Origin: Massalongia carnosa
Taxonomy: Eukaryota
Reading direction: 5' to 3'
Length of the DNA stretch: 64,000 bases
Assembly: GCA_965645245.1 (NCBI GenBank)
Contig: OZ287077.1
Coordinates: forward strand, 2,108,001-2,172,000
Each line of letters opens with the position of its first letter. Position 1 is the stretch's first letter. The notes under the pieces are model-generated. The model saw only the letters and a list, made by a program, of their open reading frames with translations, searched no databases and had not been told where the DNA came from. Made by a program: the position numbers and the translations under genes. Positions 36,031-62,673 of this stretch are shown here, one piece after another.

Positions 36031-36664
36031 AGCGATTTGCGAAGAGCTATATCCTTTTCTGATATTCGGAAGCTTGTTGCTGACCGTGCTCATAACCAGT
36101 TAAAAGGAGACTCTGGTTGCAGGTGATCGCATTGACTATGAAGCTATCTAAAAGGAAAAGAGCAGACTTTTCACCAAAGGGCAAAGCACGCTAAACCTAA
36201 AACCTTCCTAGAGAAGATTAGATTACCCGCTATCCACGTTATGAGGCAGTGAGCCCAAGCCATTATAACCATAAGCGCAACCGCCATTCAACATTATGCA
36301 TTGTGTAAGAACCACTATCCAGGGAAGACGAATAGTAGTCAGCTACCTAAGAGACTAAGCATGAAGAAGAGAAATCTATCTACAAAGAAGAATGTGAAAT
36401 CTATATGCCCGTTTGCCCTTCTTCTCGAAGTTTCCATCCGGCTCTAGAGGCTTATCTCCGAAGCTTCGGTCGGAAAGAGCCGTTGGATTTAGCGCTCCCA
36501 CACCCGAGTCCTGACACATTGATTCGAGATGCAACTTCACCGGTAAATATTGCTGAAGCGGTCATGAAAGGCATTATTAGCTGAATGCGGCTCATATTAA
36601 CGCCTGTACTCAAGTCATCGAAGATGGAAATCTACTTATGAAAGGCCGGCATCGACTACATTTA

Positions 36665-36812
36665 CGCCGCGCAACGGGTTGGGTTTTCGCCACAAAATTG
36701 CTTTTTTGCCATCGGGTTTTTCTTTGAAAACTCAACCCGGACACCAAAAATCATAAGGATCGCTACAAACGAGTTGGATTTTCAGTAGAGAAACCCGACA
36801 CGTTGCCCGGCG
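36665..36812. mobile_element. MITE with ~23-bp imperfect TIRs and TA flanks
   Basis: TA-CGCCGCGCAACGGGTTGGGTTT ... AAACCCGACACGTTGCCCGGCG-TA; a lone matching TIR lies at ~24980-25012. Confidence 0.7.
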
Positions 36813-37727
36813 TAATTACATTAGAGGTTCTTTTTGCGTCGAAAAGAAGAGCTGATGCTCTCGAAAAGAAAGAGTGCAAAATCGTCAGAGAACCGGCCCC
36901 CTTGGCTACATATTCGATGACTGCAGGCCCAGCGTATTTACTCCGCTAGGATAACTTTTGCAAACGAAGAAAAAATCCAAAAATTCTGTTTACGCGAGAA
37001 AACATTTCAATCAACCTATAATGCAGCCGAAACGATTGTTTTAATAAAGATACAATGTTTATCATATAACAAGTCTTTTGACGGGAAAAGTAAATAAGAA
37101 AAATAAATTAGATAAATAAATTCCTCGAGATTATCATTGAAGATTCGTTTTATTCGCGGGTGTTCAATGAACCTTTCTTTTGTTCATTGAACGCCTAGAA
37201 AGCAAGCGAACATCAAATGACGTTTTGTCTATATAATCCTGCTTTCCACCCTAGAACGCTTTGAAAGCAAGAAGATTACCTGCGAATTAGATTTGCATGA
37301 AAGATCATTGATAAACAAGTCTTTGCTTCTTCCGCATTGAAGGAAATCATGTTGGAATACTCGTTTAGCCCCATTAGTTCTAGCTCAGCCCTGCAGGCTG
37401 CCATGACTGCTATAAGCAGTCACCTCAGTAGTAATTTCAACATTATGCCGTCAACTGTTTATTTAACAAATCAGAGTACAGAGCAGGATCAATGCATCTC
37501 ATCAAGAGGACTGCAAAACGCTGAGCAGCTCTCTTCCCTTCATAGTAATAACTTAGATAGTCAATCTTCATTTCTCGTTTCGAGCCGTCATGATTCATCC
37601 GTCGAGTTTTTTGCCTGACTTTGATGCGGTCTTCATCGGTCAATCTCGTTCACTGTAGTCCCTCGCTGTCTCGTGCGAACGAACTTCATCTTCTCTATGA
37701 ACGCTATCTGAGTTCACTTCAACTCCT

Positions 37728-40700
37728 CTACACTTGCACTCGAATCATACCGACCTCCCCCGATTCCTCCAACCCCTCGAAATCGCTGTCATCCCTCGCA
37801 TCGTCCCCCACCCCCCGTATAACCTTGTCATCCTCCTTGATGTTCACTGGATCCAGCGCCAAAGCAATCAAGTGCGCCCGTCGGTTTTGGCGATCGTAAA
37901 TGACTTCTTCCACGTTCGACCCCTTGCACCGCAAGGCATAGGTGTGGGTTTATCCGTGTTGCGTGATGCAGTTGATTCTCTTTCGGGCCTGCAGCTCGTC
38001 GCGACTCATCCATTCCGGGTCCAACTGAACCAGTCGCCGTGCTTTGGTCATGGTGTAAACCACACCGATGAGTTTGGTGGTGCCAACCAGATACTGTGGC
38101 GAGACCTCCCCGGGGTATTTGCTCATGGTGATCGGGTCTTCTTGAAAGAGCCAGACATTGTCCTGGGTTCGCGACTTTTCGATTGCGCCATGAATGAGCG
38201 CCACATCAGCCTTGCGCACGATGCGAAGATACTACACATCATTAGCGAAGCGCCCCGAGAGGGCCCGAGAGAAGGGGGGGGGGTTGGAAGGGTTCTTCCT
38301 CCGGGGTAATCACTCACCCAGTAGAGCAACAACGCGTTCGTGGGGCCCATGGTGGCAAAACACGCCTTCTCACCTGGTTCCCACGCCTCGTCCATCAGTT
38401 GATTGAGGGCGGCGCTCTTGGGGCAATTGGCAGGCGCGCAAACGTCTCGGATGAAGACCTCGTACGGTGAGTTTGTTCGCTGTAGCTCGTACAAGCGACC
38501 GCCGACCGGCTTGATCCATCCGTTGTCCGCGTTCCGATCTTCCTTTCCCGTGTACGACAGCCTCCGCGTTTTGTCCAGTGTACCCAAGCGCGGGAAGGAG
38601 CTGAGGATTCGCATCCGTCGGGCTCGAAGGAGCCAGTTATTCATGTTCAGCTGGGGTTTGGGGGTCAGGCGAGGGACAGTGGCTTCCCATTTCGCGGTGG
38701 CTTGGTCCAGCTCCTTTTGCAAGACGCTGGTGATGGTCAGAACCTCGCTATTCACCACCTCGAGGAATTCGGGCGGCAGGATGCATTCGACATCATGATG
38801 AATGTTGGGCAGAACATTCGTCAGCGGCTGATCAAAGAACTTGGATCTCGTGGCACTGCGCCTGAGCCAGATGGTGTTCAAGACGATGGAAAGCTTGCGC
38901 ACATGCTCCGGCATCAGCAGTCCACTGTCGTCAGTGCCTTTGACCAGTCGTTTGTGCATGGCCCCGAGCTCTTTGATCTTGGCGAACGTACATTCCCGAG
39001 GCTGCTGCCGATACCGATCTCGGCGCGGCCATGGTTTTTGGGGAATGAGGAGCGAGGAGGCCCAACCGTCCTCCAGGGTGGCGATCCAATTCGCCATTTG
39101 CTCGGGTGAGGTTTCAAACGGCGTTCCCGTCAGCAGCCATTTGCGCACGTGCTTGCCCAGCTGCTTAAAGATCCAATGCGCCGTTCCAAAGCCCGACACT
39201 TCCTGATGCGCCTCGTCCATGCATGCTCGGCCCCATGCGAACATCATAGGCTCTCGGGTTACAGTCGGCCTGGACCTGGCGGTTTTCTTGAGTTGCTGAG
39301 CGAAGATTGTGAATGGCTCCACGACGTGTCGGAGATGGCAATGTTTGCTGGTGATCACAACGGTCGCCGAGGCGTCTACATGATACGAGGCCGACCCGCT
39401 GCTCGGTCCTTTCAGCTCCAACCATTTTCGGTCTTGGATGGGATGCAGACGAGGAACGATTCCATTCATCTTAAAGCTGGTGTATCCGTGCCGTATCTGC
39501 CAAGGGCCGAGCACGGGATCCTACACCAGAAACTTAGACGCATGCCGAAGCCAGTTGGCCATGATCGCCGCCGGCACCACGATGAGATTGGCGCCGAGGG
39601 TGGGCTTGAGGCGAGCCGAAGGACCATCGTCCACGCAGGGGTATTCGATACCGTACGGGTTTCGCGATGGACATTGAGCATTCACGGGCTGTGGCTCCTC
39701 GGCCGTCCCCTCCTTCAGATGCTCGGTCCAGGCCTGACGTTCACGCGCATCCTGGATGTCGCGATACGATTTGACGAGCACGCGATTCAGCGCAATCACG
39801 CCGAGCATTTCAATGGTCTGCCGGTTCCATTCGAGTCAGAAAAGAGGGAGGGAGGAAGGAAGACGAGGATTCCGAGCAGGGAGGATGCGCGCAGATGCGT
39901 ACCTTTCCCAAGCCCATGTCATCCGCATTAAATCCTCCTTTCTGAAACATCTCCATCTCCATCATGACAAAGATCGCAACCGCTTGATACAGATAGAGGT
40001 CCGCCGTGCACCCTTGAATGCGAATTCGTTCCGCGGAGCCGACTTTGCCGGATCGTGACAGAACAGACGTGCACAATCGAGCCATCGATTCTCCTAGTGA
40101 AGATGCTCCGTCACGGTGATGCTCACCAGTTCCATGAGTCTACGTCTTGTATGTTAGCTCGTCGCCTCCCATCGCGCCGAGGGGTTCGCCACTCACTTTT
40201 CTGGCATAGTTGTTGGTCGGTCCGTCTCGTCTGAGATATGACTCAGATCCTCCACGATTCCCGCGCCGATGGTGATGTTCTCCACGCCCGCGGGAACGGC
40301 CGGGGCGGTTTGCTCCGTATCATTTTGATCGTCCACGTCAACGACCCGCTCATGCAACTCCCCGGAAGATGGATTGATCCTGCTGTCAATCGTCTCGTGG
40401 CTGTCCATTGATTTCTTGAGGGTGGAGGGGAGAGAGGTCTGCATCGGTCGCGGAGTTTCCGGCGAAGCGACTGCCACTGGCGAGCTCAAGCCGCGGAAGG
40501 CGTCACCTTCGGCCTCCGCCGCGATTGCGAGGGTCTCTTCTGCCCTCCGTTGCGTGCTCGACGGCTCGGATGACTCCTTGCCCAGCTCGATGGGTGCGGC
40601 GTCTAGGGTCCTTTTTCGAGCTTGATTCTCCGGCAAGGCCTCTTCGTTGCACTGAGGTCGCTCTCTTCGTGGTTGCGATGTCGGCGACAGGCCTGACGAG

Positions 40701-41973
40701 GAGGGTGGATTCACGCATTGGTTCTCGGGACTGTCCGCTGCATCCTTAAGGAGTTGAAGGGAGTCGGAACCCATCTGAGGCGGAGTTTATGGCAAAGGGA
40801 ACGCAGCTGATCGGCTCACGCCGTCGAGGGCATCGTCGTCATCATCAGCGTCGATCTCGATGGCGGGAGTTTCCGCTCCCTTGTTGAGCCTTTGGATTCT
40901 CCGTCGCTTTCTCGGCGGCTCGGATGACTCCCTGCCCGGCTCGGCGGGGCCAGCAGCGTCTTGCCTCACTGGTCGGGATCGGTAGGTCGGCACCATCTCG
41001 TCTTCCAGCTGTTCTCGCCCGCTTCGCTGTGATGGTGGTGAAAGGCCTCGCGAAGGACGTGGATCTAGGCAAATCGGATTAGTCGGGTCTCGGGCTCCCG
41101 GGAAGGAAGGAATCATGATCGCCACATACCAGGTGTGGTCTTAGCGACGAGAGTGACTTGAAAATGCGCATGTGGCCAGCCTTGAGCTCGTGCGTCCATC
41201 ACCGCGCTTTTGAGATGTCGATCCGCCCGGATTTGCATCCATCCGCTCCTTGTCTCATAACGCACGACGAAGTTGGTGGTACGAGCCTGCAGATCCTCCC
41301 CCAAGATCTCGTGCCATCTGGTGAACGATATTCGCTGTATCAGACTGAGGCCGACGTTGCGCTCCGTTGCCTGGTCGAGCACATCTCCTACCGTGCAACA
41401 GGACAGCCGCGGGGTGCCTTCGAGCTGGGCGTGAAGCCCAAAGTTCTCCTCCGGACCTTTGGCGAACTTCTCCGCTTCGGGCGACCTTGTTCTCGGAATC
41501 CCATCGCCACAAGGACGAGATGTCTCTGCCGAGGAAGGAGGATCTCGTGACTCCTCCTGGCCCGGACGATGTCGTTCTCGCTTGCTCCGATTCCGCCGTT
41601 GATTGGACAGGGTTCTCTGGATCAGCGCTTTGCATGTGTTTAGCACAAAAGAGCCCGGCTGATCGTCTTCAAAATAGATTCGATAGGTTTGACTCAAATG
41701 CTCCAGCAACGGCTGGATTTGGATATGATCGTGATTGGTTTTCAGCCCTTGCACCTCATTGTCGGGATGTGCCTTGAACCAAGCCTGAATGGTGTTTTGC
41801 ATCTCGCGCCTTTGGGCAGACGTCAACGATAACGTGCGCTCCAGCTCGGCCATGTTCCTGTAGACTGGACTGTCCTCCCCAGCGTGATCGTCCTCGTACT
41901 TCCTTCTGGTGTCCTTCTTGATCGCATCTCCCTGGGATGACCTTCCCCGATCATCCTCCTGCCCGCTGTCCAT
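37728..41973 (-). pseudogene. SNF2-family (SF2) ATPase/helicase with a long unknown N-terminal region; multi-exon, several stops and frameshifts
   Basis: YQAVA..GGFNADDMGLGK|T, LIVVPAAIMANW, MDEAH, WLLTGTP, CPKS, YLVGT...G..YTM, DPEW..ELQA..RI; introns with GT/CTAAY/AG at ~41130-41066 and ~40197-40140. Confidence 0.85.
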
Positions 41974-42326
41974 GCCGAGTGAGAATAATCCGACAATTCT
42001 CGTAAGCGTCCTGCGATGATGGGCGAACAGATGATGATACGTGATGGGATGAAAAGATGAAAGATGAAAGATGATGCGAAAGGTTGGATGTGGGAAGAAT
42101 CCTTGTCGAAAAGGATGGAGACCAACTGGCACTTGCCGTCATCAGGACGCGTGATTCCGGTGATAACGGCGTGATATAGATAAACCCTGGATCGAAGAAC
42201 GTGTTAACACATATCATCTCGCGTTATGGGGGACTGGGCAAACCCTATGTTCAGTGGTTCACTGAACTCCTGAACCTGCTGCAATCCTAGTGCAAACTCC
42301 TCGGTATGAGTCGAGCGTCTTTGTAT

Positions 42327-44893
42327 GGGAATCAATACCGGGACACCTCTTTTCACAACCTTGACACCCAGAAATGTCTCATCATCTTGGCTAGAGAATG
42401 AAACAGCCGCAATGCTAACAGCCGCCCATTTCACTACATTAACACCCCAAAGTAAGCTAACCAAATCGGGTATAAATTTCCCTCGGGCGGCAGAAATAAC
42501 TGGAGAAAACATGCTCGATTTGATGAATTCAGGTGTGTTTTAGATAGTCGTTTGATGCTTTCTCGATGATTGTTTCATTGAATTGGGCTTCATTTCGTGT
42601 TTACATTTGAAAGGCCTGGAGCAAACCCACTCCATCTACTTCAATCGATTGAATAGCTTCACCGGAGGCCACCCCTTCACCTTGTGACTGCCCTCTGCCC
42701 CGTCCTCGCCCTCGCCCTCGCCCCCGCCCTCGCCCCCGCCCTCGCCCCCGCCCTCGCCTCGGAGGCCCATTCAACACCTCCTCGACATGTTCGAACCCTG
42801 ATAACTCCCGTTGGGTAGAGTTATCAGCCTCGCGTTGAGCTCTTTCCGATTGTAAACGCATCGCGATTGACGGACGCCCTCGGGGTCGGGCTACTACCTC
42901 GGGGTCGCGCACCAATAACAAAGGATCGATGACATTTGGAGGTGGTGATTCGTGGCGATAATAAGCCCGATCAAGGGGCGCTGAAACCACCATTTGATGT
43001 GAATGTCGTCGCGCTGAAGCACATTGGGGGCCGGGCCAGAAAGTCGAACCTAATTGCAATAGAATTAGTACGTTTTCAGGGCTATTTCCTTCAGTTTATC
43101 AACTTTCCTGGATTTCATGAGCACATGGTAGCCCCATTGTTGCTCGAAATGCCCCGGTGCATAATGAAAGAGGGGTCATTTGATCCAAAAGACGTTCGTA
43201 CTGACTATGCACCTTCAACAATGCAAAAGGCGTGATATAAGCCCTTACATCGCTGTAAAGAGGTCTTCGTAGTCGGGTAGGAAAGCTCATTTTAGCCTCA
43301 TCCAGTTTTATCACGTACTCTTGATGCTGATTCTTTAGTAATAAATCAATGTTGTCAACCACCGTTTTGAGATCACCGGTAGAAAATCCCAACTGATGTT
43401 TCAAGACAGCATGGCCCCCCTCCACCCTAGAGGTAGCAATATTGTCGAAATGAAGAACTTTGTCGACGAATGCCTTGACGAATTTTCGTTTATATGGGGC
43501 TAGCCATGTGTCTACCAGATACTGCACTTCCGCTGAATGATCATGTGAATATGCATCATTCAGAGCGTCCCAATTGACCTCATATTCCTCTTCAGTCTTT
43601 GAATAAACCACCGCATGCCACATGCTTTCGAAGGCCATCCAGTCATCGTCGGAATGAGCACTATGTCTAAAACAGGTTTCCAATGCTCCTGAACATTCCT
43701 GTGAATATGCCACAAGCATAACAAATGACGTGTGTCAGGAAACACACTGTAAATAGCGGCCATGAGGCCAATGTCTCGATCGTTTACTACTACCTTTGGA
43801 TAGGAAATATGCAGCATTCGATAAAGGGTTTTTAATTGTTGGAGAAACCAAACATAGTCCTCTTTACGTTCTTGACGAAGAAAGGCAAACCCCACATAAA
43901 ATGAGGTGTTCAGGGCCGTTGTTCCCATTGTTGATATCAATGGTAATTTGTATATGTTGGTTTTATAGGTGCAGTCCATGATTAACACGTCGGGGTTGGT
44001 CATCAGGGTGCTTTGACAGGAATCTTTGCTGAAATAAAGATGTGTTATGCGATCGAGATTGTCTTTGAGATAAAACGAATTCCTACTGCAATTTAGTATG
44101 TAAAACATTGCATCTTCTCCGTACATACCAATGAGGCCGATTTAACTCCTGCATCAACGCCTGAATGGGAGTCAGTCGTCCTAGTGCCTTGTGTCGAATT
44201 TCCGCCTTCGCATTGTAAATATCTTGTCGCTTGAAAAGAGGATTATTGTCATTTATATCGTCAGTCTGACCGAGCCGAAGAGACGAAAGGATTTGACTCG
44301 GTTTCATTTGCACCTTCGTTGCGCGCACAATTTCATCAGCTATAGCTGGGGTGATAGCAAGTTTTCTGAGCGATGGATGAGAGCCTTCCACGGTAGCAGA
44401 GTGATTGTGGCCTGGATTTTGAATATCGCGAACTATCCATTTCATCGTCTTTAGACTTGACCACTACAGAGAAAGGACAGTCAATGGTCCTAGAGGTTCC
44501 ATGTAAGCGTTTCTGTCCTCGAGGCTGACGGTCCTTTCGTCCTCGATCACAACAAATATAACATGTGTCTATCAATCCAGTGGTCGCGCACTTTTTGGTG
44601 CGAAGCTGGCAGACAGCATACCCCTCAGGGCCTGCGTGTTTTTGCATGGCGACAAGAAGAAGATTGAGCGATCCATATGTTTCGTTCAGCATGTGGGTGG
44701 GAGGGGCAAGATTCATATTGATAGCTGATTGGTTAATGTGCATGCAATGACGAATGGAATGCATGCAAATATGAGTGCAGAAATCGAAGTTCCAGCTCCG
44801 GAACGGATAAACAATCCGATTTGGTTAGCTTACTTGGGGGGTGTTAATGTGGGTGTCAAGGTAGTGAAAAAGGGTGTCCCGGTATTGATTCCC
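42327..44893 (-). mobile_element. Mutator-like element (MULE) with long TIRs and 8-bp TSD CTTTGTAT
   Basis: TIRs begin GGGAATCAATACCGGGACACC; TSD at 42319-42326 and 44894-44901. Confidence 0.93.
42601..44716 (-). pseudogene. MULE transposase (FAR1-like, MULE DDE, SWIM-like, AT-hook), frameshifted
   Basis: CDRG..CPF..HNH; MDCTYKTN..LPL; NDRD; CLWH; TSRVEGGH; CTGAF..MGLPCAH; RPRGRP; (RG)n tail. Confidence 0.9.
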
Positions 44894-45089
44894 CTTTGTA
44901 TCGGCGTGCATGAATGAATGGAAAAAATGGAAAGAAAAAAACTAAAAAAATTACAGGGAATTCACCCCATAGTCGCCCGGATAACTACCGGTCCAGTTGA
45001 AAAGACAATGCTACTTGAGATTTCGTCATGTACCGAGGGCCTTACTAAAAATACGCAAGCGTTTTCATCACGCATCGTGGGATCGCCGT

Positions 45090-48000
45090 CTACCATACAG
45101 GATCGGCAGGGTTCGACAACGTGATATCGTCAGTGTCTTCCTTCCAGCTTCCGCCGGCTTTGTCTTCCGTGTCCTTCGCTTCCTCCGCATTCTCCTTCCT
45201 GTCCTCTGCGTTCTCCATCTTCTCGCCGTCTTTCCGCTCCTCCATCGTCGGGGCCCGAGCTTGCTGCTCTCTCGTCAATCGCCATTGCATTCCTCGGAAG
45301 GGGGGGAAAGACTTACTGTCGGCTCGTGGTCATTTCTCTCCATCGTCTCGTCATGTTCCTCGTTTGGCACCACTGTTTGCCCCCAATCGGTCTGTTCTCG
45401 CATCAGTCGCTATGACATCCACTTCGCGGGGCTATTTGGGGAGTACCTACCGTGCAATTGCCCTGCTCGGTGGTGGTCTCGGGGATCTGATCGACGCAGT
45501 CTCCCCGCTGAAGCGAGGATGGAAGATATTCGTTCGACTCCAATTCGGGAACCTTGGCCTCCGCTCGCAGTCGCTTGACATGGTTGAACACATTCCCGAA
45601 GTGACGGCGCTCGTGCGCACGCCCTTTCATGACTCCCTCCACGTCCCCGACAATGATCAGCCCCTCCATCGGGCGCGAGCAAGCCACGTTCACCCGGTTT
45701 CGGAGACGCATAAATCCCAGTTGTTCGGTAGTCACGAAATCCAGAATGATGAAGGGCGCCTCTCCTCCTTGCATGGAGTCCACCGTGCGCACGCAAATGG
45801 TGGACATTTCGGGGCGCGATAGCGAGAGGTTGCGCAATCCTTGCCGGTACAATTTGTATTGCGCACGATAAAAGGTGAGAATCGTCAGCTGCGCGGCGTT
45901 CACCACGGCGCCGTCGATGATCTCAATCGCGAGATTGAGGACGATGGCTGCGTTGGACGGGTTGTAGAGCGATTGCGTATTATCCCGGTGGGATTGGCCG
46001 CGGACCTTGAGGGTCATCAACGGGGAGTGGACCTTGTATTTGGTTCGCAAGAACGCAGTGATCTTGGGAGAGCGGACGCGAGGCAAGCGCGGTTCCCGCG
46101 CCATTGATCAGCCGGCCCCTATAGAACAGGGTGGAGATCATGGTGCCCACGGGAGCGACCATGCGGTATTGAATTTTGAACAGCACCGACGGATGTCCTA
46201 ACATCTTCAGGCGTTGAAAGAAGGATACGCGCAGCGGTTGCATAAAGCCGTTCTCGTTGAGGGTGCTCATCACGACTGGCCGGAGCTGAGCCTCATCGCC
46301 TATCAGAACCAGTGGCGTCTTGGCATAGTTTCCGAGAATGTTCCACATGTCCGGTTCGACGGCGCGTGTGGCCTCATCCACAATGATGAGATGTGGATGA
46401 AACGCCGCGTAACAGCCGGCATCCCCGGAATTGGACACGGTGGTGATGACGACGTTGGCGAGGCCGAGGGTACGTTCTTGCAGGAGCTGACGGGCGCGAC
46501 CGTATGCTTGCTGATTGTGGTCATCAACAACTCACCCGCCACCACGCACCGATAGTAGTCGAGGAACACGGTGTGACTTTGGGGCTCGGCGCGGGGTGCG
46601 GTGGGTCGGTAATGATCCCGGCGATGCGTAACATCCAGGTGGCCAGGCTGACCGCCTGCTGCACGTATCGACGGTCCCGCACCCCATGCGGGTGATGTTG
46701 GGTTTCCATGAACGCCCCGAAAATCATCGGCGCGATCCCCATCAGCGGTAGTTCTTCCTCCCCGTCCCCGTCCTCGTCCTCGTCCTCCTGATCGTCCGGG
46801 TTTTCTTGACGCGTCCGGAGCTCGATCACCTCCGCTTCGGTCTTGATGCTATGCAATCGAATCACGATCGCGTTGGCCGTTCTGGGGTCCATGAGGGCGG
46901 TGGTATAGATGCGGTCGGCTAGTTCGTCGGCGGCGGCGTTATCGGGCGTGCACATGAGGACGCGGGTCTGTTGCCCGGGTGGGATTTAGTCTGAGGTGTT
47001 GCTGGGGAGGTTCGCAGCCAGGTGGGAGGTGGTGGAGGCGGACAACAAGGGCTGATTCGCTTGCGAGTCCGGGTTGGCAATCACGGGTGGAAGGTTGGTC
47101 GGACTCCACAGAAAGGGCTGCACCACGGTCACAATGAACGATGTCTTTCCTGTCGCGGCGGGACCGGTCACAATGCCGATGCCGTTGGGTAGCTCTCGCA
47201 GATAGGTGAGACCGTGAAGCTGCGCTTCATTAAACCGCTGAGTTTGCAAAAGAGCCATGGCGGGTGTGGGACAGGGGGCATAGATGTCGGTGCGGACCGT
47301 GACGTCGATGTTTTTTCCGAGCAGGTACGTGCGCCACCACCCACGCGCTTCCTCCTGAAACAACTTGTGCAGAGCCACCAGCTGGCGTCGGAAGGTCTGG
47401 TCACTCGATGTGATCGCGATCCCGATCATGTGGGCCGGGTCGCGCGCGATGTCCAGGAAGGCCTCGGCGACGGTGAGCATGCTGGCGGGGAGTGGGTTGA
47501 GCTCGCCTTCCACGTACGCGTTCGCTTCCCCGTCCCAGTGACGGAAGAGCGCCACGCACACATCTCCTTGCGGGGCACATGGCAGGGTGTCGATCACCAC
47601 CGCGGTCCAGTCCTCTGTTTCCAAGCGGAGAGCGGGGTCGAAGTTGATCTTCAGCCGGTCGCCGATCTCGAACCGAGCATTGACCTCGTCCGGTTTCTCC
47701 ACAAAGCCGATGTAATGCCCGTCATGCGAAAACGGAACCTCCATCACCCGCAGCTTGAAGACATTCTCCGCGATCTCGGCGACCGAGCGTTGCGCGACTT
47801 CATGCTCGTAGATGCAACCGAAGCCGTAGACGGTGTTGTACTCGGACCACGAGTCGAGTGTGGGCGAGGCGGGAACGCGGACCGGTGGACGGGCTGCGGC
47901 TGGTAGGTAATCCCCAAGTTGCAAGAAGTGACGGCGTGGATGTGATGGATAGAAAGTCGGGTAATCGGGAGCCGTGGGCAGCGCAGCGAGAAAGTCGGCG

Positions 48001-48590
48001 ACGATGGTGCGGACATTGTCGTTGGTGTTAATGAGCAGACGTAGCGGTGCATGGGGGGACGTGTTGATTCGAGTGTGTACTCGCGTCAAATCCGGGTGTG
48101 GAAAGCGTTGCCCTAGTGGAGCGGCGAAACCGTATTGCCGAAGACCTGCCGCGTTGTAGGTGATCGTTAGCTGGTAAACCAAGCTCTGGGAAAGGACGTG
48201 GGCCAATAGCTTTTCCTTTTGCAGATTGGGAAGTACGGTGTCGGGGCTGACCATCTCGATCGCGATGTCTTGGATACATCCCAAGCCCAGGCACACATGC
48301 GCCTCGTGAAGATCGGTGGGTTCTCGTGCTTCTTTCTTCGGCCCAAAGGTGCCATTTCCCGATCGGATGTAGAACGAGAGCTGAAGATAGGATTTCCAGG
48401 ACGGAATGTGCATAAAGGTGATCTTCGGCACCAGAACAGGATCTGGAGCCACCACATTGTTGGTGGTCCCGAGATATTCCTCGTCGCCCATTACAAGGAC
48501 CCCGCGATACTGTTGTCGAGGTTGATTGACCTGCAACACATCGTCCACATCGTTGAGGAAGTCCGCTTGACGAGGAGCCTCTATTGCCAT
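45090..48590 (-). pseudogene. SF1 helicase of the Upf1/Sen1/DNA2-NAM7 type, with a large N-terminal domain; disrupted
   Basis: FNEAQ, VTGPAATGKT, CTPDNAAADEL, IVDEA, LIGDEAQL, QYRM, TFYRAQ, TVDSMQGGE, RVNVACSR, IIVGD; the 3' end is approximate. Confidence 0.88.
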
Positions 48591-49806
48591 GTTGACGAAA
48601 ACGTCGAATGAGAGAGAGATGGAAGATTCGGAAAGCAAAGCTTGGTTAAGGATCAAGTGAGGTGTAAATGTGAGGTTGATCTTGATGATGTGGATGTAGA
48701 TTGAATGATGTCAAGGTGAGCTTGGTTTTTGGTGATGTGGATGTAAACTGAATGATGTAGAGATGAGTGATGAAGTGAATGTTTTGGTTGAACGTTAAAC
48801 TCAAACTGCGAGCAATTCAGCCCGCGGTCGCTCGGATGACTGCCGGTCTAGTCGTGAAAGAGATAACGAGTAGAAAACGAAAGGATTGAAAGAATGAAGC
48901 CACCAGTCAACGTTCAGGATCTCATTGCATTGCAGGCGACTACGACCCGCGCAAGTGACGTTTGTGCCATTATTCTCAGCAGGAATCAAGGAAGACGAGA
49001 CATTGCGGGCCTTTTGCAGCCGAGGAGACTCGAAACATCTGCAGCAGCAACTCTTTTTTCCCTGTATGCAGAAGGAGAGCAGAAGATGATGAAAGGAGAG
49101 TTCTTATCTACAGAAGTTTTTTGATTGACCGCGGCTTAACGAGTACTTTTGAAGCGTGTCTAAAGAGGTGACAACGTCATGTCATTCTTTTTCGGCGTCG
49201 GCGACAAATGATCAAGATGTTTCAGCATCTCAACATGATGATTTACCGAGTCACTGGTTGTCTCTACTTCCCTTCCTCTCCTCCCCTCTTCTTCTCGATA
49301 TCTCTCGTTCTTATCCAGCTCCATAATCGCCGCCTGTCCTTTCATCAGTTATCCTTCTTTTTCTTTCCACGGTTCAAAGTCTCATCGCATTGCGTTGAAC
49401 TCGGAAATACTGTGAGACTTTTACCCTTTGATTCAAACTCGCTGCGTGTCCTTGATGGGTCGATCTCATTCTCGGCGCTCTAGATAATCGTGCTTTCACT
49501 TTTCTCTCGTGCGAGTCGATGACCTTGAGAGCGCTTTTCCTTCAAGGCCATCGACTCCGTGACAACGGGAAACATGGGACATTGACCATTCGCATCAAGT
49601 GTAGAAGACAATATGTCGAAAAGATTGAAAGCGGTCATGAGAAGGGGAGTACTACAGCTTGAAGAAAGATAACCGGCATTATGAGAATGAAGGCTTTGCG
49701 GGATAGGTGGTGAGCGGGCAGAAACACGCGTAGTTTTCCTCCTTCGTGGTGATATTTTCCTCATCAAGACGTTTCTCCCTGAACTTGGGCATGTGTCGTT
49801 CAATCG

Positions 49807-50340
49807 GTGTTTGATATTCACCGTGTGAAACCCATCATTCTGGCTTGTTCCAAGTCACCCATTCCACTCTATCCCATATGCTTAATTGCACCGTTGGTTA
49901 GGGTTATGTTGATGGACCCAGGGGTCAAGATCGACGAAGAGGTGAACGATCGGATGCTCGAGCGGGTGTATCCTTCCAAACCCATCTCCTCCCAGGTCGC
50001 GGCCTCGAACGATCTGGTCAAAACGATTCGAACCAAACGCCTATGCCACATTCAGTCCAAAGCTCGGGCCGGTGGTCGATGGGATGAGCTTGGCCATGTT
50101 CTGGGCGGAGATCAGGGCCTGCACCTCTTCGACCCGGCCCTTCCCGACTCGGTCATGGAACATCAGTCCAATGCCTGGTGGACCCAGTTGATCGCCGTCT
50201 TCCGCGACATCAAGCCTTGGGCGCCTCGCCTCACCCGCGCGTACGCGGCCAGTGTCACTCCGCACGGGACTGATGCCATTCCGGACTGGAGTCGACGACC
50301 CTTGACGGAACCCGCGAAGCCCGTGGAGGAAGCATCTTAG
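49807..50340 (+). CDS. Hypothetical protein (possibly a terminal exon)
   Basis: GC-rich 177-codon ORF with protein-like composition and no recognisable motif. Confidence 0.35.
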   Translation: MFDIHRVKPIILACSKSPIPLYPICLIAPLVRVMLMDPGVKIDEEVNDRMLERVYPSKPISSQVAASNDLVKTIRTKRLCHIQSKARAGGRWDELGHVLGGDQGLHLFDPALPDSVMEHQSNAWWTQLIAVFRDIKPWAPRLTRAYAASVTPHGTDAIPDWSRRPLTEPAKPVEEAS

Positions 50341-50591
50341 GTTCAAGCTCGCATTGATTTCTTTTCTTCTTCGGCGATGGGCTTGTCGGATATTTCCGTG
50401 GATTAAGGTTTCTTTCTTCCTGTTCTCGGTCATCATCATGTTAGCATCATGAGATCGTTTTCGTCGCCGCAGTTCCATTGACTCCGCCCCGCACCCTGAT
50501 GAGATGATTGAGCCCCCGCATTCCCATCATGAGATGAACCGACCTTGATGCCTTGCACATGTAATCATGAAATCTGTCGTTTCAGAATGAC

Positions 50592-50638
50592 AATCACGTG
50601 ACGCTTCGCTCGGGCCCCGAGGGAAGCGTCACGTGATT
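50592..50638. repeat. 47-bp near-perfect GC-rich palindrome
   Basis: AATCACGTGACGCTTC-G-CTCGGG-C-CCCGAG-G-GAAGCGTCACGTGATT. Confidence 0.9.
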
Positions 50639-50673
50639 CATCGTTTCATAGGGCCTGCTTAATTGCCGTAGCA

Positions 50674-51985
50674 ACGCGGGTGACAAAAAAAATTTTACTC
50701 ACAAATTTTGACCCCACCAAACCATCAAAGTTTGACCCTTATTTGCATCGTGGCACCACACTATTATTATTGCTACTCCTACTACTATCAATAACCCGTC
50801 ATCGCACCGTCACCATCTATCACCGCTTGCAGCCCTTTCGGCATCTCAGCCACCTTGCTATTGATGAAATTTTGCGAAACCGTGGCCCACCCCTCATGAA
50901 TCAGTCCTACCGTGGTGGCCTCATCCCAATGAGGGAATTTGCGAATATACTGCTTGGGTGGCTGCCAGCAATTTTCAATAGGTGAGAGATCAGGAGACGA
51001 AGCACAGTTGAAATAGCTTTTCAACCCATTTTCTTCCTTCCATTTGCGTACGATATTGTTTTTACTAGTACCGTGCCCTGAATCACCATCTTCTTCCAGA
51101 CAGAAATCATCACCTCTGTCAAGCCACTGCTTGACGACAGGCTTCAAAATCTGATCAATATAGACCCTTTGACTCATCTTTTCATTAGTGTTGCCCGGAA
51201 CGTCGTATAAACGAATGTCTGACTTGAAATTGAGTCCCACAGCAGCCCAAGCATGCTTTTTTTTCAAGTCTTTTTCAGTTGATTCGTTCGTTTCTTGAAG
51301 ACAATCTTGACAGTATCGTTGACCCGGCTTGCGAATGATGCGAATTTTCCCCTGAGGCCCATAGCTATAATGCACCTCATCGCTGAATCGTACAGAAAAC
51401 CAGTCTTTATCATCAGGATATCTTTCTTTCATGACGATAGCCTATTCAAAACGACGTTTAGCCGTCGATTCGCTGACCCAGCCCTTTCTACATGCAATGC
51501 ATTTATGATAATTCATCGTACCCATAACTCTCTGAATTTTACGATCACTGCACTCCAGTCCCACCTCGTAGCCCAATTGAACCCACGTTAACCCGCGAGC
51601 CTCAATGCCTTCTGTCTCCAAAATACGCTCCATCTCTCGTATGTGTCTCGGGGTCACAATTGAATGACGTCCACGTGTTTCAGGAATGTCGGCATTGTGT
51701 CTAGTACGACTGGAATTTTCTCTTGTCAACATTTTCCAGCCAGTTTGTTTTGAAGTGCCGAAAACACGGAAAACATCTTCTTTGAAATAAGGAATCTTCA
51801 TCGCATCGCAAAACTCCACTGCACCCTGAATTTTGGCCCGTGTGGGGGTAGGATGATGGGTCTGAACCTTATGCGACTCCAAAGCAGGTGTGGTAGCTCT
51901 ATTCATGGCTGAATGATGGTGTATAAAATGTGGTGGTTGAAAAGGGGTCAAAATTTGTGAGTAAAATTTTTTTTGTCACCCGCGT
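50674..51985 (-). mobile_element. IS630/Tc1-like DNA transposon with perfect 42-bp TIRs
   Basis: ACGCGGGTGACAAAAAAAATTTTACTCACAAATTTTGACCCC at 50674-50715, inverted at 51944-51985. Confidence 0.92.
50788..51906 (-). pseudogene. Tc1-like DD37E transposase with one in-frame TAG (51442-51444)
   Basis: RGR and HTH-like N-terminus; FSDE, EEDGD, SPDLSPIENCW; 37 residues between the second D and E. Confidence 0.88.
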
Positions 51986-52488
51986 GCGAGGTCATATATC
52001 AATGTAAACACCCTTGTAATTTAGTTACAGCCTGGTGTGTTATTTATTAGCAAACATAGAAGAGATGGCCTCTAAGAGTCATTGAGAAGTGAGTTAATGT
52101 GTGCCTATATTTTCGAGATCAAAACATTATTGACCTTTTTGTGGGCAGAGAAAACAAGCCTGAAATGAAATGCAGTGGTCCATCTCTCATCTTCATCACT
52201 GTGAGGAATACTTATAAGATTTTATAAGCAAAGACTGTCTGCCATCTAAAAGCCACATATCAAAATTCTCTTCTCAAACGCATATCGAGTATAAGTTAGC
52301 TAGTTCACACGTCTAGAACGCACTTGCGCGAAAGTAGACCTCAAGGCGCTCAGTCCTCCACTTTCAAATCATAAATTACAGCTTCTCTCTTCACATTATT
52401 TGTTTCAGCTTCTATATTGCTGGATTTTTCCCGCCGCCCTACCCGTCCCCGGTCGCTCTTGCGCATCACCTCACCACGTCGAGCGTTT

Positions 52489-54925
52489 CATGCCTCAAGC
52501 ATCATCACTCAGCTGGTCTTCATGGTCTTCATGGTCTTTGTCCGACACCAGGTATTTATTTCATCGTGCCCCCCGACCTCCAAAATCGGCTGTTCTGCTC
52601 AGCTTCCCCTCCGTTCCCATCGTCTCTGACGACCTTTCTCTTCGTGTCCCTCAACCCTTCATCTTCGTATTTCCAACCCTCTTATTCTCCCACTTTCATT
52701 TTCGCCGTCCCTCCTTCACGTCGATCACCTATCGTCCACGCTCGTCGACTCTAATTTTCCCTGAACGAGTTTACAAGGACAGCAGCGAGGATCTACAGAG
52801 CTGGGTTAAGAACCTTTGGTATCGGTAAGGAGATGCTACTACTACTATCGTGGACTGGCGAAATCTGATCGAGGCTGACAGATATTGCGAATTCACTGGG
52901 AAGAATTCCGTCATGACTCTCAAGGAGATCTCTATCAACATCCTCTACGTCTTCTTCGACTGGATACTCTCCATTCGAAAAGGTCGGCTGAGTGCGGCTA
53001 GTACCCTGCAAACATACTGGAATTTTTTTTGCCTAGTGCGAAAGAAAGAGACTGGCTGTCTAGAGATCGACCCGCTTATCAAAAGCCAGATGTACGGGGT
53101 ACGAGAGCCCCGTTCTACGCCTCTATTGATTAACCAGTACTAGGCGAGACAACGGCTCGCTCTAAAGCATCGGTTAAGGACTGAGAAGAAGAAGAAGAAA
53201 CTTATCATGCGGGCCGAGGACGATTCGTCGAGATCGTCTTTGATCACGAGCGGCACCGTGTACAACTAGCCTTGATCATGCAGCTAGCCGGGATCACAGA
53301 CAATCGTCCTGCTGCTCTTTTGGGTGTGTGCTACAAAGATTTTAAGATCACCTTGCTTCCGGGTCTCAAAGGAGGGGAGCTTCCTCGACGGTTGATTGAA
53401 ATCGCATTCAAGAATACGAAGGGCTATCTAGGCGATAAAGAAACGTCCGTGTTGCCCTTTTGTGCTTTCTTCGTCGAGACGGACAGTTTCGCTGAACTAC
53501 TAACAAGTATCATAGAAACGAGTTCAGGATTCCTGACGAGCCTGACGAACCATGCCTGCTGCTTTGTCCTCATCTAAACCTACTCACTTTGATCTTTATC
53601 GATCAGGCCTTCGCCGCTCCCGAATTGATTTCTGCCGAACAGTATTCCGTCTCCGGATCCCCCCGGGACAGAAATAGCTGCCGTTTCTCCTTAAGGAAAC
53701 GATGCTACACGTTCTCCTCTTCCGCCGATCCGAATTCCCTGAACGGGGTTCGAATTTCGGACGCCAAAGCTCTGCCTGACAGTACTCTTCGATCACGGAT
53801 GAGAACCCTTGGAAGCGTCACCGGAATGAAGCTTCCCACCGGTTCATACATCTTTCGACGAGGCAATAGCGAAGCTCTCGACAACAGCAAGTGTGTACAC
53901 GACCTCTGTCAATTTTCTTTTGAGCTTTTTGCTGACCCTTGCACAAGCTTCATCAGCGAATCGCAACGGAATCTGATTTTGCAACATCACAACTCCACCG
54001 TGTTCTTAAAAAGCTATCTCTCGAGGTATATCACAAGTGATACCGGGGCCGCCTATCGTGGTTTGAAGCCGCAAACTGCGCTGATGCGACTCGCCAGTGG
54101 AATGAGTCGTAAGATTGATCGACGACGGCCTCGGAAGCTCAATGACGCCCAAAAAGCTCAGGTCGATCGTCACCCAGAGGTGAGACTCCTTTGCCGGAGG
54201 CAAAAGAAAATGTTCCAGTTCATCAAAGACAATTATGGACCCATCGCGAGCATGAAGGGGACATCAGTGTACAATAAGTACCAAAAGGCGTATCAAGCTC
54301 ATCGCAACATAAAACGGCGGCAGAGGAGGCTCTTTTACAAGAGGTCAAAGCGAGGTAAAAGAGGGAGCAGCCGGTGATCGACATTCAACGAAAGCTGAAA
54401 GGACTGCCGTCGGTAGAACTCGAGACGGCGAAGGCAGAGGATTACGTCTTCGAGGAGCGTGTCCGGGTCATCGATACCCTCCTCACCTTCGCGACGTCAT
54501 CCCCAGAGGAAGAGTGCGAACGGCGGGTTGAAGCGATCAAAGTTTTGACAGCCCTTTGTCGCTTGCAGGAAGGCAAGCGTCCACGTCGTTCAAAACTTTC
54601 CGCGCCGGTCGTCAAGGAACGGCATCTGACACCACCATCTGTCCTCGATCCGGCCTCTCTTTCAGACTCCATCTCGATTGAATGCGAACCCACTCAATGT
54701 ATCTTTTGCATCTTTTGCCTCGGCTGTGTAGCGCTAGCCACCGAGACACGTCTGAAGTCTTTCCGCAGCCGCTACGATCTGAAAAAGCGCTTCCATTGTA
54801 AACACCTTCGTCATCACCAAGACGGTCATCCGATCGCATGCCCTCATCCAAGGTGTCAAGATGTTTTGACAAGCACAATGAACTTGCAGAACCATGCGGA
54901 GTTGGTTCACAAGACGCCCACTTGA
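52489..54925 (+). pseudogene. DUF3435 tyrosine recombinase (Starship captain type) with C-terminal C2H2 finger; intron-containing and frameshifted
   Basis: FFDW....STLQTYW; RHRVQLALIMQLAGITDNRPAALL; NTKG; LCPHL; YIFRRG; QRNLILQH..S.VF..SYLSR; MSRKIDRRRP; CPHPRC...LQNHAELVH. The start codon is uncertain. Confidence 0.82.
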
Positions 54926-55627
54926 CTGTCATTCGGCCTTTGCGTGCAGATTGGTTATATAAATTCCTTTTGAGATCACCACCTTACGAGCGGCCATAAT
55001 AGGTTGCCTCCCCATAGAAAAGCTTCGGTTCGGCATCAAGCTTGACTAATTCCATACCCTTCTGCTGTTTTCGATGCGTCGAATGGCAAGTCTCATGACC
55101 ATCTCAGGTTCTTATAAATTCTTCGCTCCTTGTAGCCTATAACTACTACATCATCATCAGCATCAACTCTCGTATCGCTCTAGCTCCCAATTTCGGCTCC
55201 TCTACTCCCTCGCAACATCCCATCTTCAAAATCATGGCTACCGTACCATTTGCAACAGCGACCGAATGGAATAGCCTAGGAGTATACGTACAATGTCTTC
55301 TATCTAAAGACTCATCATCACGGACCAGATCATCGGCCATGGACAGGTCAGACTTGGGTCGCTCACTTCGGGGGCAATCGTGGGTATGCTGACCTTACCT
55401 ATCAATCACTGTATTCTTACGAAGGATAGCTGCCTCCATCTAATATTCATCTAACATGGCTGCCTAAATCATACATGTACCGTGTTATAGATGGAGAGCA
55501 TCTCGGCGCAACCCACATGAAGTCAGAGATAATGGTTTTATCCTTGGGGCCACTATCTAGACCGTTATGTACAATAGTAGCAATATTAAAAAAACGATAT
55601 TAAACTCCTGTGAAACATGATATCTTC

Positions 55628-55730
55628 AGCCAGAGAAAATGCCCGAGGCTTTAAAATGACTGGGGCTTTTTAGTCACTATCCCTTTTCAATCACTACTCC
55701 CTTTTAATCCCTACTCTCTTTCAATTCCTA
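55628..55730 (+). repeat. Direct repeat copy 1 (~100 bp) flanking the NLR
   Basis: Matches 62032-62131: AGGCTTT.AAATGACTGGGGCTTTTTAGTC..CTTTTCAATCACTACTCCCTTT..CCCTACTCTC. Confidence 0.85.
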
Positions 55731-55875
55731 TTTGATCCGATTTGGCACAGCGAGACAAGATGCCAAGAATTTTGAAACTTCCCCCATACGCCTTGCGCCC
55801 CTGCGCCCCTTACCTTCAAGTTCCCTCTCAACGGAACGATAGAATTTCAATTCCATCATTGCCAGCAAGATTAAA

Positions 55876-58800
55876 CTAGCCTTCAGACGGTATTGATCTG
55901 ATCTCATTTTGACGTTTGAATATATCATCCAGCCTTGTCCTGCCTAGAATTGTCATACCTGGCACAGGTAAGCCGCTTGAGCCCCGCAGATACATCTTTT
56001 CGGCCTCGTTCATCTTGCCTTGGATTTTATACAAATTTCCTAGATTGTTGACTGTGGCAAGCGTTGATGTGTGATCAGGACCCCAGGCCTTTTCGTATCC
56101 TGTCAATGCCCGCAGATACATCTCTTCAGCCTCGTTCATCTTGCCTTGATCTGTATACAGACTTCCTAGATTGTTGACTGTTGTAAGCGTTGATGTGTGA
56201 TCAGGACCCCAGGCCTTTTCGTATCCTGTCAATGCCCGCAGATACATCTCTTCGGCCTCGTTCATCTTGCCTTGGATTTTATACAAATTTCCTAGATTGT
56301 TGACTGTGGCAAGCGTTGATGTGTGATCAGAACCCCAGGCCTTTTCGTATCCTGTCAATGCCCGCAGATACATTTCTTCGGCCTCATTCATCTTGCCTTG
56401 ATTTGCATACAGAATTCCTAGATTGTTGACTGTGTCGAGCGTTGATGTGTGATCAGGACCCCAGGCCTTTTCCTTTCCTGTCAATGCCCGCAGATACATT
56501 TCTTCGGCCTCATTCATCTTGCCTTGATTTGCATACAGAATTCCTAGATTGTTGACTGTGTCGAGCGTTGATGTGTGATCAGGACCCCAGGCCTTTTCGT
56601 ATCCTGTCAATGCCCGCAGATACATCTCTTCGGCCTCGTTCATCTTGCCTTGATCTGTATACAAAAGCCCTAGATTGTTGACTGTGTCGAGCTTTGATGT
56701 ATGATCAGGATCCCAGGCCTTTTCCTTTCCTGTCAATGCCCGCAGATACATCTCTTCGGCCTCGTTCATCTTGCCTTGATCTGTATACAAACTTCCTAGA
56801 TTATTGACTGTTTTGAGCGTTGATGTGTGATCAGGACCCCAGGCCTTTTCGTATCCTGTCAATGCCCGCAGATACATCTCTTCGGCCTCGTTCATCTTGC
56901 CTTGGATTTTATACAAATTTCCTAGGTTGTTGACTGTGGCAAGCGTTGATGTGTGATCAGAACCCCAGGCCTTTTCGTATCCTGTCAATGCCCGCAGAAA
57001 CATCTCTTCGGCCTCGTTCATCTTGCCTTGATATGCATACAGACTTCCTAGATTGTTGACTGTGGCGAGCGTTGATATGTGATCAGGACCCCAGGCCTTT
57101 TCGTATCCTGTCAATGCCCGCAGATACATCTCTTCGGCCTCGTTCATCTTGCCTTGATCTGTATACAAACTTCCTAGATTGTTGACTGTTTTGAGCGTTG
57201 ATTTGTGATCAGGACCCCAGGCCTTTTCGTATCCTGTCAATGCCCGCAGATACATCTCTTCGGCCTCGTTCATCTTGCCTTGATCTGTATACAGACTTCC
57301 TAGATTGTTGACTGTTGTAAGCGTGGATGTGTGATCAGGACCCCAGGCCTTTTCGTATCCTGTCAATGCCCGCAGATACATTTCTTCGGCCTCGTTCATC
57401 TTGCCTTGGATTTTATACAAATTTCCTAGATTGTTGACTGTGGCAAGCGTTGATGTGTGATCAGGACCCCAGGCCTTTTCGTATCCTGTCAATGCCCGCA
57501 GATACATCTCTTCGGCCTCGTTCATCTTGCCTTGATCTGTATACAGACTTCCTAGATTGTTGACTGTTGTAAGCGTTGATGTGTGATCAGGAACCCAGGC
57601 CTTTTCGTATCCTGTCAATGCCCGCAGATACATCTCTTCGGCCTCGTTCATCTTGCCTTGGATTTTATACAAATTTCCTAGATTGTTGACTGTGGCAAGC
57701 GTTGATGTGTGATCAGGACCCCAGGCCTTTTCGTATCCTGTCAATGCCCGCAGAAACATCTCTTCGGCCTCCTTCATCTTGCCTTGATCTGCATACAGAC
57801 TTCCTAGATCGTTGACTGTGGCGAGCGTTGATGTGTGATCAGGACCCCAGGCCTTTTCCTTTCCTGTCAATGCCCGCAGATACATCTCTTCGGCCTCGTT
57901 CATCTTGCCTTGATCTGTATACAGACTTCCTAGATTGTTGACTGTTGTGAGCGTTGATTTGTGATCAGGACCCCAGGCCTTTTCGTATCCTGTCAGTGCC
58001 CGCAGATACATTTCTTCGGCCTCATTCATCTTGCCTTGATTTGCATACAGAATTCCTAGATTGTTGACTGTGTCGAGCGTTGATGTGTGATCAGGACCCC
58101 AGGCCTTTTCCTTTCCTGTCAATGCCCGCAGATACATCTCTTCGGCCTCGTTCATCTTGCCTTGATCTGCATACAAAAGCCCTAGATTGTTGACTGTGTC
58201 GAGCGTTGATGTGTGATCAGGAACCCCGGCCTTTTCGTATCCTGTCAATGCCCGCAGATACATCTCTTCGGCCTCGTTCATCTTGCCTTGCTCTGTATAC
58301 AGACTTCCTAGATTGTTGACTGTTGTGAGCGTTGATGTGTGATCAGGACCCCAGGCCTTTTCGTATCCTGTCAATGCCCGCAGATACATCTCTTCGGCCT
58401 CGTTCATCTTTCCTTGATCTGCATACAGAATTCCTAGATTGTTGACTGTGTCGAGCGTTGATGTGTGATCAGGACCCCAGGCCTTTTCCTTTCCTGTCAA
58501 TGCCCGCAGAAACATCTCTTCGGCCTCGTTCATCTTGCCTTGGATTTTATACACATTTCCTAGATTGTTGACTGTGTCGAGCGTTGATGTGTGATCAGGA
58601 CCCCAGGCCTTTTCGTATCCTCTCAATGCCCGCAGATACATCTCTTCGGCATCTTTCTGCTTGCCTTGTTCTTTTGAAAAATAGCCAATAGCATGATACG
58701 AAGGATATAGTACCTGTTCCCATCTCATATTCCTTTCGAGGTTTTGATGTTTTTTTCCAATCCAGAAGTGAACATAACTACAATGACCAGCCAGTCGTTT

Positions 58801-62305: not shown

Positions 62306-62673
62306 TCCTCAACCCCCTTTAGTGATAATATTTAACTTTAACTTTTATGAAAAGCTTCATTCGCGAGACGCTGGAGGGGGGTGGAGCGGTGATGCTCAAA
62401 ATTCAAATTGCTAGCGGTTCGGGAATTGGTTCTTTTCGGCTGGTACTCGGTAAAGGTAGCGGGGAAGTCAGGTGACAGTCTTTCTTTTAGTTATAGATAC
62501 AGTACTAGGCCAAAAGTCTGCGGCCCCGCACCCCACCAACATTTTAATCATTCTATTCAATCAACAATCAAGCACGTCATGATTGCTGAAATGTCTTGAA
62601 ATTTTACATAATGATTACATATATACTAAACAATAATTCCCCCAAAAGTTGATTTTTAATATTTAGTATAGAG

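Follow-up and report, generated by a model that had tools for sequence, protein, structure and literature searches.

The window analysed here is a 64,000-bp stretch of the Massalongia carnosa genome (52 Mb in 25 contigs), positions 2108001-2172000 of contig OZ287077.1, here called C11 (labels C1-C22 indicate contigs of this genome, L numbers loci and P numbers database relatives). It is a nest of transposable elements (TEs), in which long terminal repeat (LTR) retrotransposons are accompanied by a Mutator-like element (MULE), by a Tc1-like element and by genes for DUF3435 and patatin-NB-ARC-TPR proteins, and it harbors what we call the helicase block, i.e., the pseudogenes of a Upf1-like superfamily 1B helicase (SF1) and of a SNF2-family ATPase (Table 1). 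As the initial annotation had stated, the two genes are co-oriented, both on the minus strand, and the MULE is cleanly inserted between them; the gap of ~550 bp given for the pair holds if the last small exon of SF1 lies near 45090, and becomes ~870 bp if the gene ends at 45410. No transposase had been seen in the block, and none besides the MULE was found by a six-frame Pfam scan, a low-sensitivity approach which also missed the helicase remnants at L169, a locus of a second fungus described below. Pieces assembled from four runs covered 30/30 bins of the region 36500-53500, none of them spanning the whole block, and no RNA run was among the matches listed. The comparison of copies presented here shows that the block consists of broken passenger genes in a large duplicated segment and is not a hairpin-bounded element.

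The SF1 gene gives AAA_11 and AAA_12 matches, with Walker A, Walker B and motif VI still legible in the window sequence. It aligns at 39-60% identity with residues 1-1042 of a database relative of 1107 aa, P0001, split across three frames, and P0001 itself lies above the Pfam cut-offs for both AAA_11 and AAA_12, indicating membership of the Upf1-like SF1B helicases. The predicted fold of P0001 (pLDDT 80.8) aligns best with UPF1 (~820 columns, E 3e-34), while coronavirus nsp13 ranks low among the fold matches. The large unrecognised N-terminus formerly attributed to SF1 is in this way reduced to ~200 additional residues, the rest aligning with the UPF1 helicase core. In the AlphaFold model these residues form a beta-rich domain closed by a helix (pLDDT 75), with structural matches mostly of PH, PTB and FERM type (top Z 8.5, rmsd 2.3, 88 aligned residues); as Z scores near 8 are common according to the tool's own warning, we regard the fold class as likely PH-like, without implying function. 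A plant RdRP region is found among these matches at rank 18 (Z 7.5), and the N-terminal half of the protein resembles 1B-domain families (atlas scores all <0.9), both being leads only. Neither the comparison of the N-terminal profile with PDB sequences nor a Foldseek search with the domain gave a significant match.

The N-terminal profile, built from 15 sequences that are mostly members of the tested set, matched 83 of the 153 SF1 relatives, i.e., the best hits of P0001. All the named relatives are fungal; Aspergillus, Fonsecaea, Phyllosticta, Peltula and Chaenotheca have annotated full-length ones, and a scan of prokaryotic genomes found no relative. Together with the gene families encountered here, the named relatives suggest that the source is a filamentous ascomycete. 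In 18/151 relatives the FYMINK/GARP ratio, which measures AT-biased amino acids, exceeds 2, suggesting a resemblance to repeats degraded by repeat-induced point mutation (RIP) in other fungi. In a FastTree phylogeny with a weak backbone, the copy on C19 stands apart from three other SF1 helicases of the same genome. Two divergent SF1-family paralogues (P0036 and P0037) from one Phyllosticta genome have accessions only 7 apart, which suggests local clustering.

The SNF2 gene, in which spliceosomal-type introns can be read from the sequence, shares 54-71% identity with P0153. The Pfam match of the window open reading frame (ORF) itself is weak; P0153 passes the cut-offs of SNF2-rel_dom and Helicase_C and the ORF of a second copy (copy D, see below) that of SNF2, so that the assignment to the SNF2 family is secured. 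An insert diagnostic of the subfamily is present in copy D and in 6/11 database relatives, several of the others being fragments that begin after it. The N-terminal ~280 aa, already reported as unrecognised, stay unassigned after our search: they resemble unnamed Ascomycota clusters (atlas scores <0.9, a lead only). A search with the SNF2 alignment among proteins of 1228-3505 aa returned nothing, which is weak evidence, and proteins of 1000-1227 aa fall outside that range.

In the same genome we found three near-identical copies of SF1 (on C11, C13 and C19) and three of SNF2 (two on C11, one on C19), in agreement with the earlier view that these are multicopy, non-housekeeping genes. All of them lie in one duplicated unit of ~100 kb, in TE-rich regions near contig ends. 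Besides copy A, the window copy, which extends over ~C11:2145-2242 kb or more, the unit is represented by copy B, whose start lies within the MULE (C13:1913 kb), by copy C at ~C19:1459-1572 kb, and by copy D at C11:241-289 kb, which is 93-97% identical and rearranged, with the 3′ part of SNF2 inverted and SF1 absent, and which joins half of the palindrome discussed below, cargo genes and SNF2. To the right of the palindrome the unit carries DUF3435, NLR, DUF7924, NDC10_II, fungal kinase and NACHT-ankyrin genes. No outer boundary of the unit could be defined, as both ends dissolve in TE nests, and no standalone 13-kb copy of the helicase block was found in the genome. Further SF1-like matches lie on C8 (752 kb), C3 (336 kb) and C20 (948 kb), and C9 has a SNF2 remnant (1292 kb). 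A 70% DNA match at C11:279 kb, considered as a second captain in copy D, was rejected, since it covers only 45 C-terminal residues. As for the NDC10_II/GCR1_C gene, it is mobile and present in several copies (e.g., C19:1510 kb, L082:4968-6140, and C7:2501.5 kb, L171), and we take it to be Crypton-like.

The lesions of the two genes have different histories. The stop at 46986 and a frame disruption near 46590-46530 are common to copies A, B and C, so that SF1 was broken before the recent duplications and cannot have driven them; the pN/pS is 0.24-0.75, based on small counts. The lesions of the SNF2 core in the window are not common to copy D, and SNF2 may therefore have been intact at the older split of that copy. 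The initial annotation had read four premature stops as single C>T changes from Gln codons and thus as traces of RIP on repeated DNA. Comparison with the other copies fits only one of the four, namely the stop at 37950, which is CAA in both other copies; the stop at 39521 is GAG in both, that at 40787 is GAA in copy D, and that at 46986 is TAA in 3/3 copies, hence uninformative on its origin. A further stop near 40098 derives from GAG. Copy-specific substitutions number 240, with 82 transversions among them; the C>T changes are 26 at CpA vs. 38 at CpG, and the TpA/ApT ratio is low (0.26-0.48 in 2-kb bins over 38001-42000 and 44001-52000). With many transversions, no C>T excess at CpA and no raised TpA/ApT, the RIP argument was abandoned, and with it the RIP-mutated repeat as an explanation of the locus.

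The two hairpins that were proposed to flank the block both exist; they are not its termini. Homology between copies passes the left hairpin by more than 300 bp before entering repeats, and it continues for ~80-100 kb to the right of the palindrome. Hairpins with arms of at least 12 bp number 6 in the window, compared with 3, 1 and 1 when the bases were shuffled three times, so that the long hairpin clearly exceeds chance and the short one does so by a modest margin only. The left hairpin is kept in 3/3 copies, being imperfect in C and D; the CTAG said to follow it is found in copy A alone, the next letters being CCAG in both other copies. The palindrome carries two CACGTG motifs, a sequence known as a bHLH site, and belongs to a separate repeat family (49909-50650; loci L004-L011), often near contig ends, that contains both the palindrome and the so-called orphan ORF. 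Hairpins as element ends were therefore discarded: homology runs through both, CTAG is private to copy A and the palindrome comes from another repeat. This family was found on C1, C7, C8, C15 and C16 and near the end of C19; the palindrome itself recurs on C7 and C8, with half of it at C11:241.6 kb. At C8:2361 kb the repeat is followed by an ORF without a Pfam match, which presumably resembles telomere-linked helicase genes. The orphan ORF, initially delimited as 49807-50340, does not behave as a gene: substitutions against four paralogous loci are spread evenly over the three codon positions (20/22/18, 27/24/18, 26/23/28 and 30/26/26), with no sign of coding constraint, and it has no Pfam match.

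Two lines of evidence speak for the origin of the gene pair. Outside the source genome, a scan of metagenomes identified two loci with both families, L169 and L170, which are 97-99.6% identical and hence count as one independent locus. At L169, scrambled SF1 remnants (10001-11862) are followed within ~400 bp by SNF2 remnants in the same order and on the same strand; the latter, at 12236-12555 (86 bits, 39-50% identity) and 15719-15967 (49-60%), belong to this subfamily. Core-looking genes border the 10-kb interval that contains the pair, in which a Pfam scan of the low sensitivity mentioned above detected only a retroelement fragment and no DUF3435 match. The SF1 remnants share 30-48% identity with their best family matches, indicating that the SF1-SNF2 linkage is old, and from ~9 subfamily loci in 52 Mb we estimate the probability of chance adjacency (≤1 kb, one strand) at ~1e-4.

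The second line of evidence links the SNF2 subfamily with a transposase. Three of the five PF18759 (Plavaka) loci carry a SNF2 gene of the block subfamily in head-to-head orientation, 1.3-10 kb away: C12:1986.4-1992 kb (L177), C20:262.8-270 kb (L164, L099) and C22:47-59 kb. The units on C12 and C20 are 93% identical across transposase and SNF2, and the C12 unit has six copies of a 7-bp motif on one side and four on the other, the two arrays being inverted. Such arrays resemble the subterminal repeats found in CACTA-type elements. The Plavaka-linked SNF2 shares 24% identity with the block SNF2 (E 8e-31), and the diagnostic insert is present in both. We regard the three units as a candidate SNF2-carrying Plavaka transposon, of which no terminus was identified on comparison; an accessory SNF2 of the same subfamily beside the transposase is a test of likeness and not a published defining feature of these elements. 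With the C12 transposase ORFs as tblastn queries, only C20 matched among the loci compared, and PF18759 matches were absent from C11 and C13 and, up to a distance of 200 kb, from the surroundings of the C19 helicases.

Since the SF1-SNF2 linkage is old and the SNF2 subfamily is associated with a transposon, the block is best read as the relic of an accessory cassette from a DDE DNA transposon, now a passenger whose transposase is gone, a reading to which we give an even chance of being right. The pair would originally have been accessory cargo, most likely of a Plavaka/CMCT-type element, and its transposase would have been lost here. In the Plavaka unit the transposase is placed upstream of SNF2, head-to-head with it, and it is the corresponding side of the block that was replaced at the Tc1-like junction. 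Judging from the enzyme classes, an intact SNF2 might have remodelled chromatin over the element and an intact SF1B helicase might have unwound or remodelled RNA-protein complexes, helping it to escape host silencing. At present the genes are dead, duplicated passively in the ~100-kb segment and joined to the DUF3435 unit, itself truncated, by way of the Tc1-like element. Of the two outcomes offered earlier, a new element class or a conserved cargo cassette, it is the cassette that gains from the second fungus and from the Plavaka-linked SNF2.

Several observations weigh against this interpretation. The C12 and C22 units share one duplicated segment (97-98% identity), so that the Plavaka link amounts to about two independent loci, and the SF1-SNF2 linkage outside the source genome to a single one. 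The block, the stretches fetched for copies A-D and L169/L170 yielded no remnant of a Plavaka transposase, and the 7-bp motif of the Plavaka unit is absent from the block and from the L169 interval. No SF1 gene accompanies the Plavaka-linked SNF2 at C20 (19 kb) or C12 (10 kb), and the ORF upstream of this SNF2 does not align with the N-terminus of the block SNF2. Neither terminus, target duplication nor empty site was found for the block. Finally, an SF1 remnant at C13:1183 kb and a SNF2 remnant at C8:615 kb have no partner within ~6 kb; this partner check left aside the matches at C8:752, C3:336 and C20:948 kb, and C9:1292 kb was read for 1.5 kb on each side.

The immediate neighbour of the block must also be considered, i.e., the unit carrying DUF3435 and the patatin-NB-ARC-TPR gene, which is present at ~16 other loci with 91-95% identity, an unusually high copy number. 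In 11/11 other DUF3435 copies examined the upstream sequence differs, indicating that the Tc1-like element is where the window copy became joined to the helicase block. The flanks of this element are unmatched, despite the 5-bp target duplication of a related miniature inverted-repeat transposable element (MITE) of the window; this MITE (817-1078) has terminal inverted repeats (TIRs) related to those of the Tc1-like element. Three copies of the DUF3435 family diverge at an LTR-like repeat and no fixed 5′ end was found. Among 17 related loci on contigs of known length, a count in which two loci on C5 were left aside, 15 lie within 350 kb of a contig end and 13 point toward the nearer end, a clustering that suggests exchange between chromosome ends. 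The last 200 bases of C11 (2297509-2297708) are GC-rich and coding-like and are not telomere repeats, so that contig ends need not equal chromosome ends. In the patatin-NLR gene, the TPR array of 126-bp repeats (55876-59412) differs in length between copies A and C, and related 17-bp tandem arrays flank the gene at 55626-55750 and 62027-62320.

On this basis the helicases could be ordinary Starship cargo, spread in a giant DUF3435 element that has lost its true captain or its 5′ end, an explanation that we consider unlikely. The unit does carry DUF3435, patatin-NLR, NACHT-ankyrin, fungal kinase and DUF7924 genes; patatin and NLR genes, found here in the neighbouring unit only, are Starship auxiliaries in the accessible parts of the descriptions (PMC13486527; 10.1101/2021.12.13.472469), helicase domains are among the cargo classes counted in Aspergillus oryzae Starships in the available part of PMC13562431, and copy D ties the half palindrome, cargo and SNF2 together at 93-97% identity. 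However, captains are described as the first 5′ gene (PMC13486527; 10.64898/2026.06.16.732702), whereas here the captain has the block upstream of it, beyond a junction that is a secondary DDE-element fusion. Moreover, no other DUF3435 match occurs in the unit among the best 60 candidates, the other copies of the DUF3435 family have no helicase match nearby, and the L169 interval is, within the limits of its scan, free of DUF3435. We consider it rather unlikely, too, that the genes are a host accessory pair, e.g., for RNA silencing or non-self defence like SAD-3 and SAD-6 of Neurospora, which was never transposon-borne, spread by segmental duplication only and was later lost. The position of the second-fungus locus between core-looking genes, the full-length relatives annotated in five fungal genera and the plant RdRP lead among the PH-fold matches are consistent with it, and so is the accessible text of PMC5555490, where SAD-3 is helicase-like and SAD-6 has a SNF2 domain. 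It is at odds with the decay of both known pairs, with the tie of a SNF2 paralogue to a Plavaka transposase, with the AT-degraded SF1 relatives, which suggest repeated DNA in other fungi, and, given the weak backbone of the tree, with the separation of the C19 SF1 from the other three SF1 helicases of the genome.

The two remaining explanations are far less probable. That the pair represents a new autonomous class, hairpin-bounded and moved by its two helicases in a Helitron-like or other manner, appears very unlikely and is, for this genome, largely refuted: the hairpins exist, the left one remains a hairpin in all three copies, and the block and L169 offer no transposase beyond the MULE of the former and the retroelement fragment of the latter; but homology runs through both hairpins, the palindrome has its source in another family, and the CTAG of copy A would, on the plus strand, end an element to the left of the block. 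In addition, none of the 21 Helitron_like_N matches is in or near copies A-D, SF1 is Upf1-like and not PIF1, neither protein has a strand-transfer domain, and no standalone copy of the block was found. Least probable is a viral origin, with the helicase pair endogenised. Viruses do have SF1 and SNF2 genes, and nsp13 appears, at a low rank, among the fold matches, yet IMG/VR gave generic matches, with three SNF2 loci at 26-29% identity, of which the two checked lack the diagnostic insert, and with one SF1 match limited to Walker A among the matches listed; the spliceosomal-type introns of SNF2 and the exclusively fungal named relatives likewise disagree with a viral source.

Going beyond the relic cassette that we favour, one may ask whether the block is a transposase-less relic of an undescribed, widespread transposon class, Plavaka/CMCT-type or related, that carries a SNF2 and PH-Upf1-like counter-silencing cassette. 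We put this forward as a tentative and rather doubtful proposal, and are similarly hesitant about its corollary that the cassette would target both the chromatin and the RNA arms of genome defence. If true, a conserved remodeller and RNA-helicase cassette would be a second, different counter-defence strategy besides the TET/JBP enzymes of fungal transposons, which are proposed to counter DNA methylation, and the fungal Upf1-like helicases, a large family without annotation, would gain a role. While the DNA of this locus is dead, the link between SNF2 and Plavaka can be tested directly.

Table 1. Features of the helicase block and its neighbourhood (positions in the window).
Feature	Positions	Strand	Remarks
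MITE-like dispersed repeat, left edge of the block	36663..36814		Present in copies A and D and, internally shortened, in C; many differing flanks at both edges
Hairpin with 14-bp arms	37159..37195		~530 bp downstream of the SNF2 stop
119-bp high-copy LTR-like repeat	37350..37469		Insertion in copies A and C; not in D
SNF2-family ATPase pseudogene	37728..41973	-	~1300 aa inferred, several introns; order: unassigned domain of ~280 aa at the N-terminus, linker of low complexity, ATPase core carrying the subfamily-specific insert
MULE transposon	42327..44893	-	TIRs and 8-bp target duplication; clean insertion
Upf1-like (SF1B) helicase pseudogene	45090..48590	-	Start 48590, end ~45410 or ~45090
Predicted PH-like N-terminal domain of SF1	47940..48530	-	AlphaFold model and structural search
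Orphan ORF	49906..50340	+	Open frame within a separate dispersed repeat family
47-bp palindrome, 23-bp arms	50592..50638		Two CACGTG motifs; member of a separate repeat family
Tc1-like DDE element	50673..51986	-	Unmatched flanks; junction between helicase block and DUF3435 unit
5′-truncated Starship-like unit	51987..62370	+	Co-duplicated neighbour, outside the cassette
Broken DUF3435 gene	~52.8-54.9 kb	+	Within the Starship-like unit
Patatin-NB-ARC-TPR gene	55.9-61.2 kb	-	Within the Starship-like unit

In the open-licence literature we found no description of the SF1-SNF2 pair or of the SNF2-Plavaka link, most subscription papers, Repbase and bioRxiv supplements being outside this scope. Among known systems, Starships are similar in that the block is co-duplicated with a DUF3435 and patatin-NLR region and typical cargo, and differ in the place of the captain and in the helicase-free surroundings of the other DUF3435 copies. 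Like UPF1, SEN1, IGHMBP2 and ZNFX1, the block helicase combines AAA_11 and AAA_12 in a UPF1-type fold. The N-terminus of UPF1 is a Cys/His-rich domain, whereas the block family is patchy, divergent and fungal, with a predicted PH-like N-terminus. With Helitrons (HLE1/HLE2) the block shares an SF1 helicase gene and, in copy A alone, a hairpin with CTAG. HLE1 elements are defined, in the accessible text of PMC11417382, by a hairpin at the 3′ terminus, with CTRR after it where the element ends; the block has neither this arrangement, its hairpin not being terminal, nor the HUH Rep and PIF1 helicase of a RepHel protein. The Neurospora proteins SAD-3 and SAD-6 unite the same two enzyme classes in one pathway, the meiotic silencing that unpaired DNA induces (MSUD; PMC5555490, as far as accessible); they are host genes, while those of the block are adjacent, multicopy and decayed, and the likeness considered here is one of enzyme class. 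The closest comparison is offered by the Plavaka (CMCT) elements, which the available part of PMC12730594 presents as fungal DDE elements with CA..TG termini and a 2-3 bp target duplication, carrying non-transposase genes such as TET/JBP that are proposed to counter silencing. In its main text and the supplement searched, "SNF2" does not occur and the sole "helicase" refers to Helitrons; the transposon sequences given there untranslated could encode SNF2. Compared with these elements, the block is devoid of the transposase and of the repeat motif, and adds an SF1B helicase.

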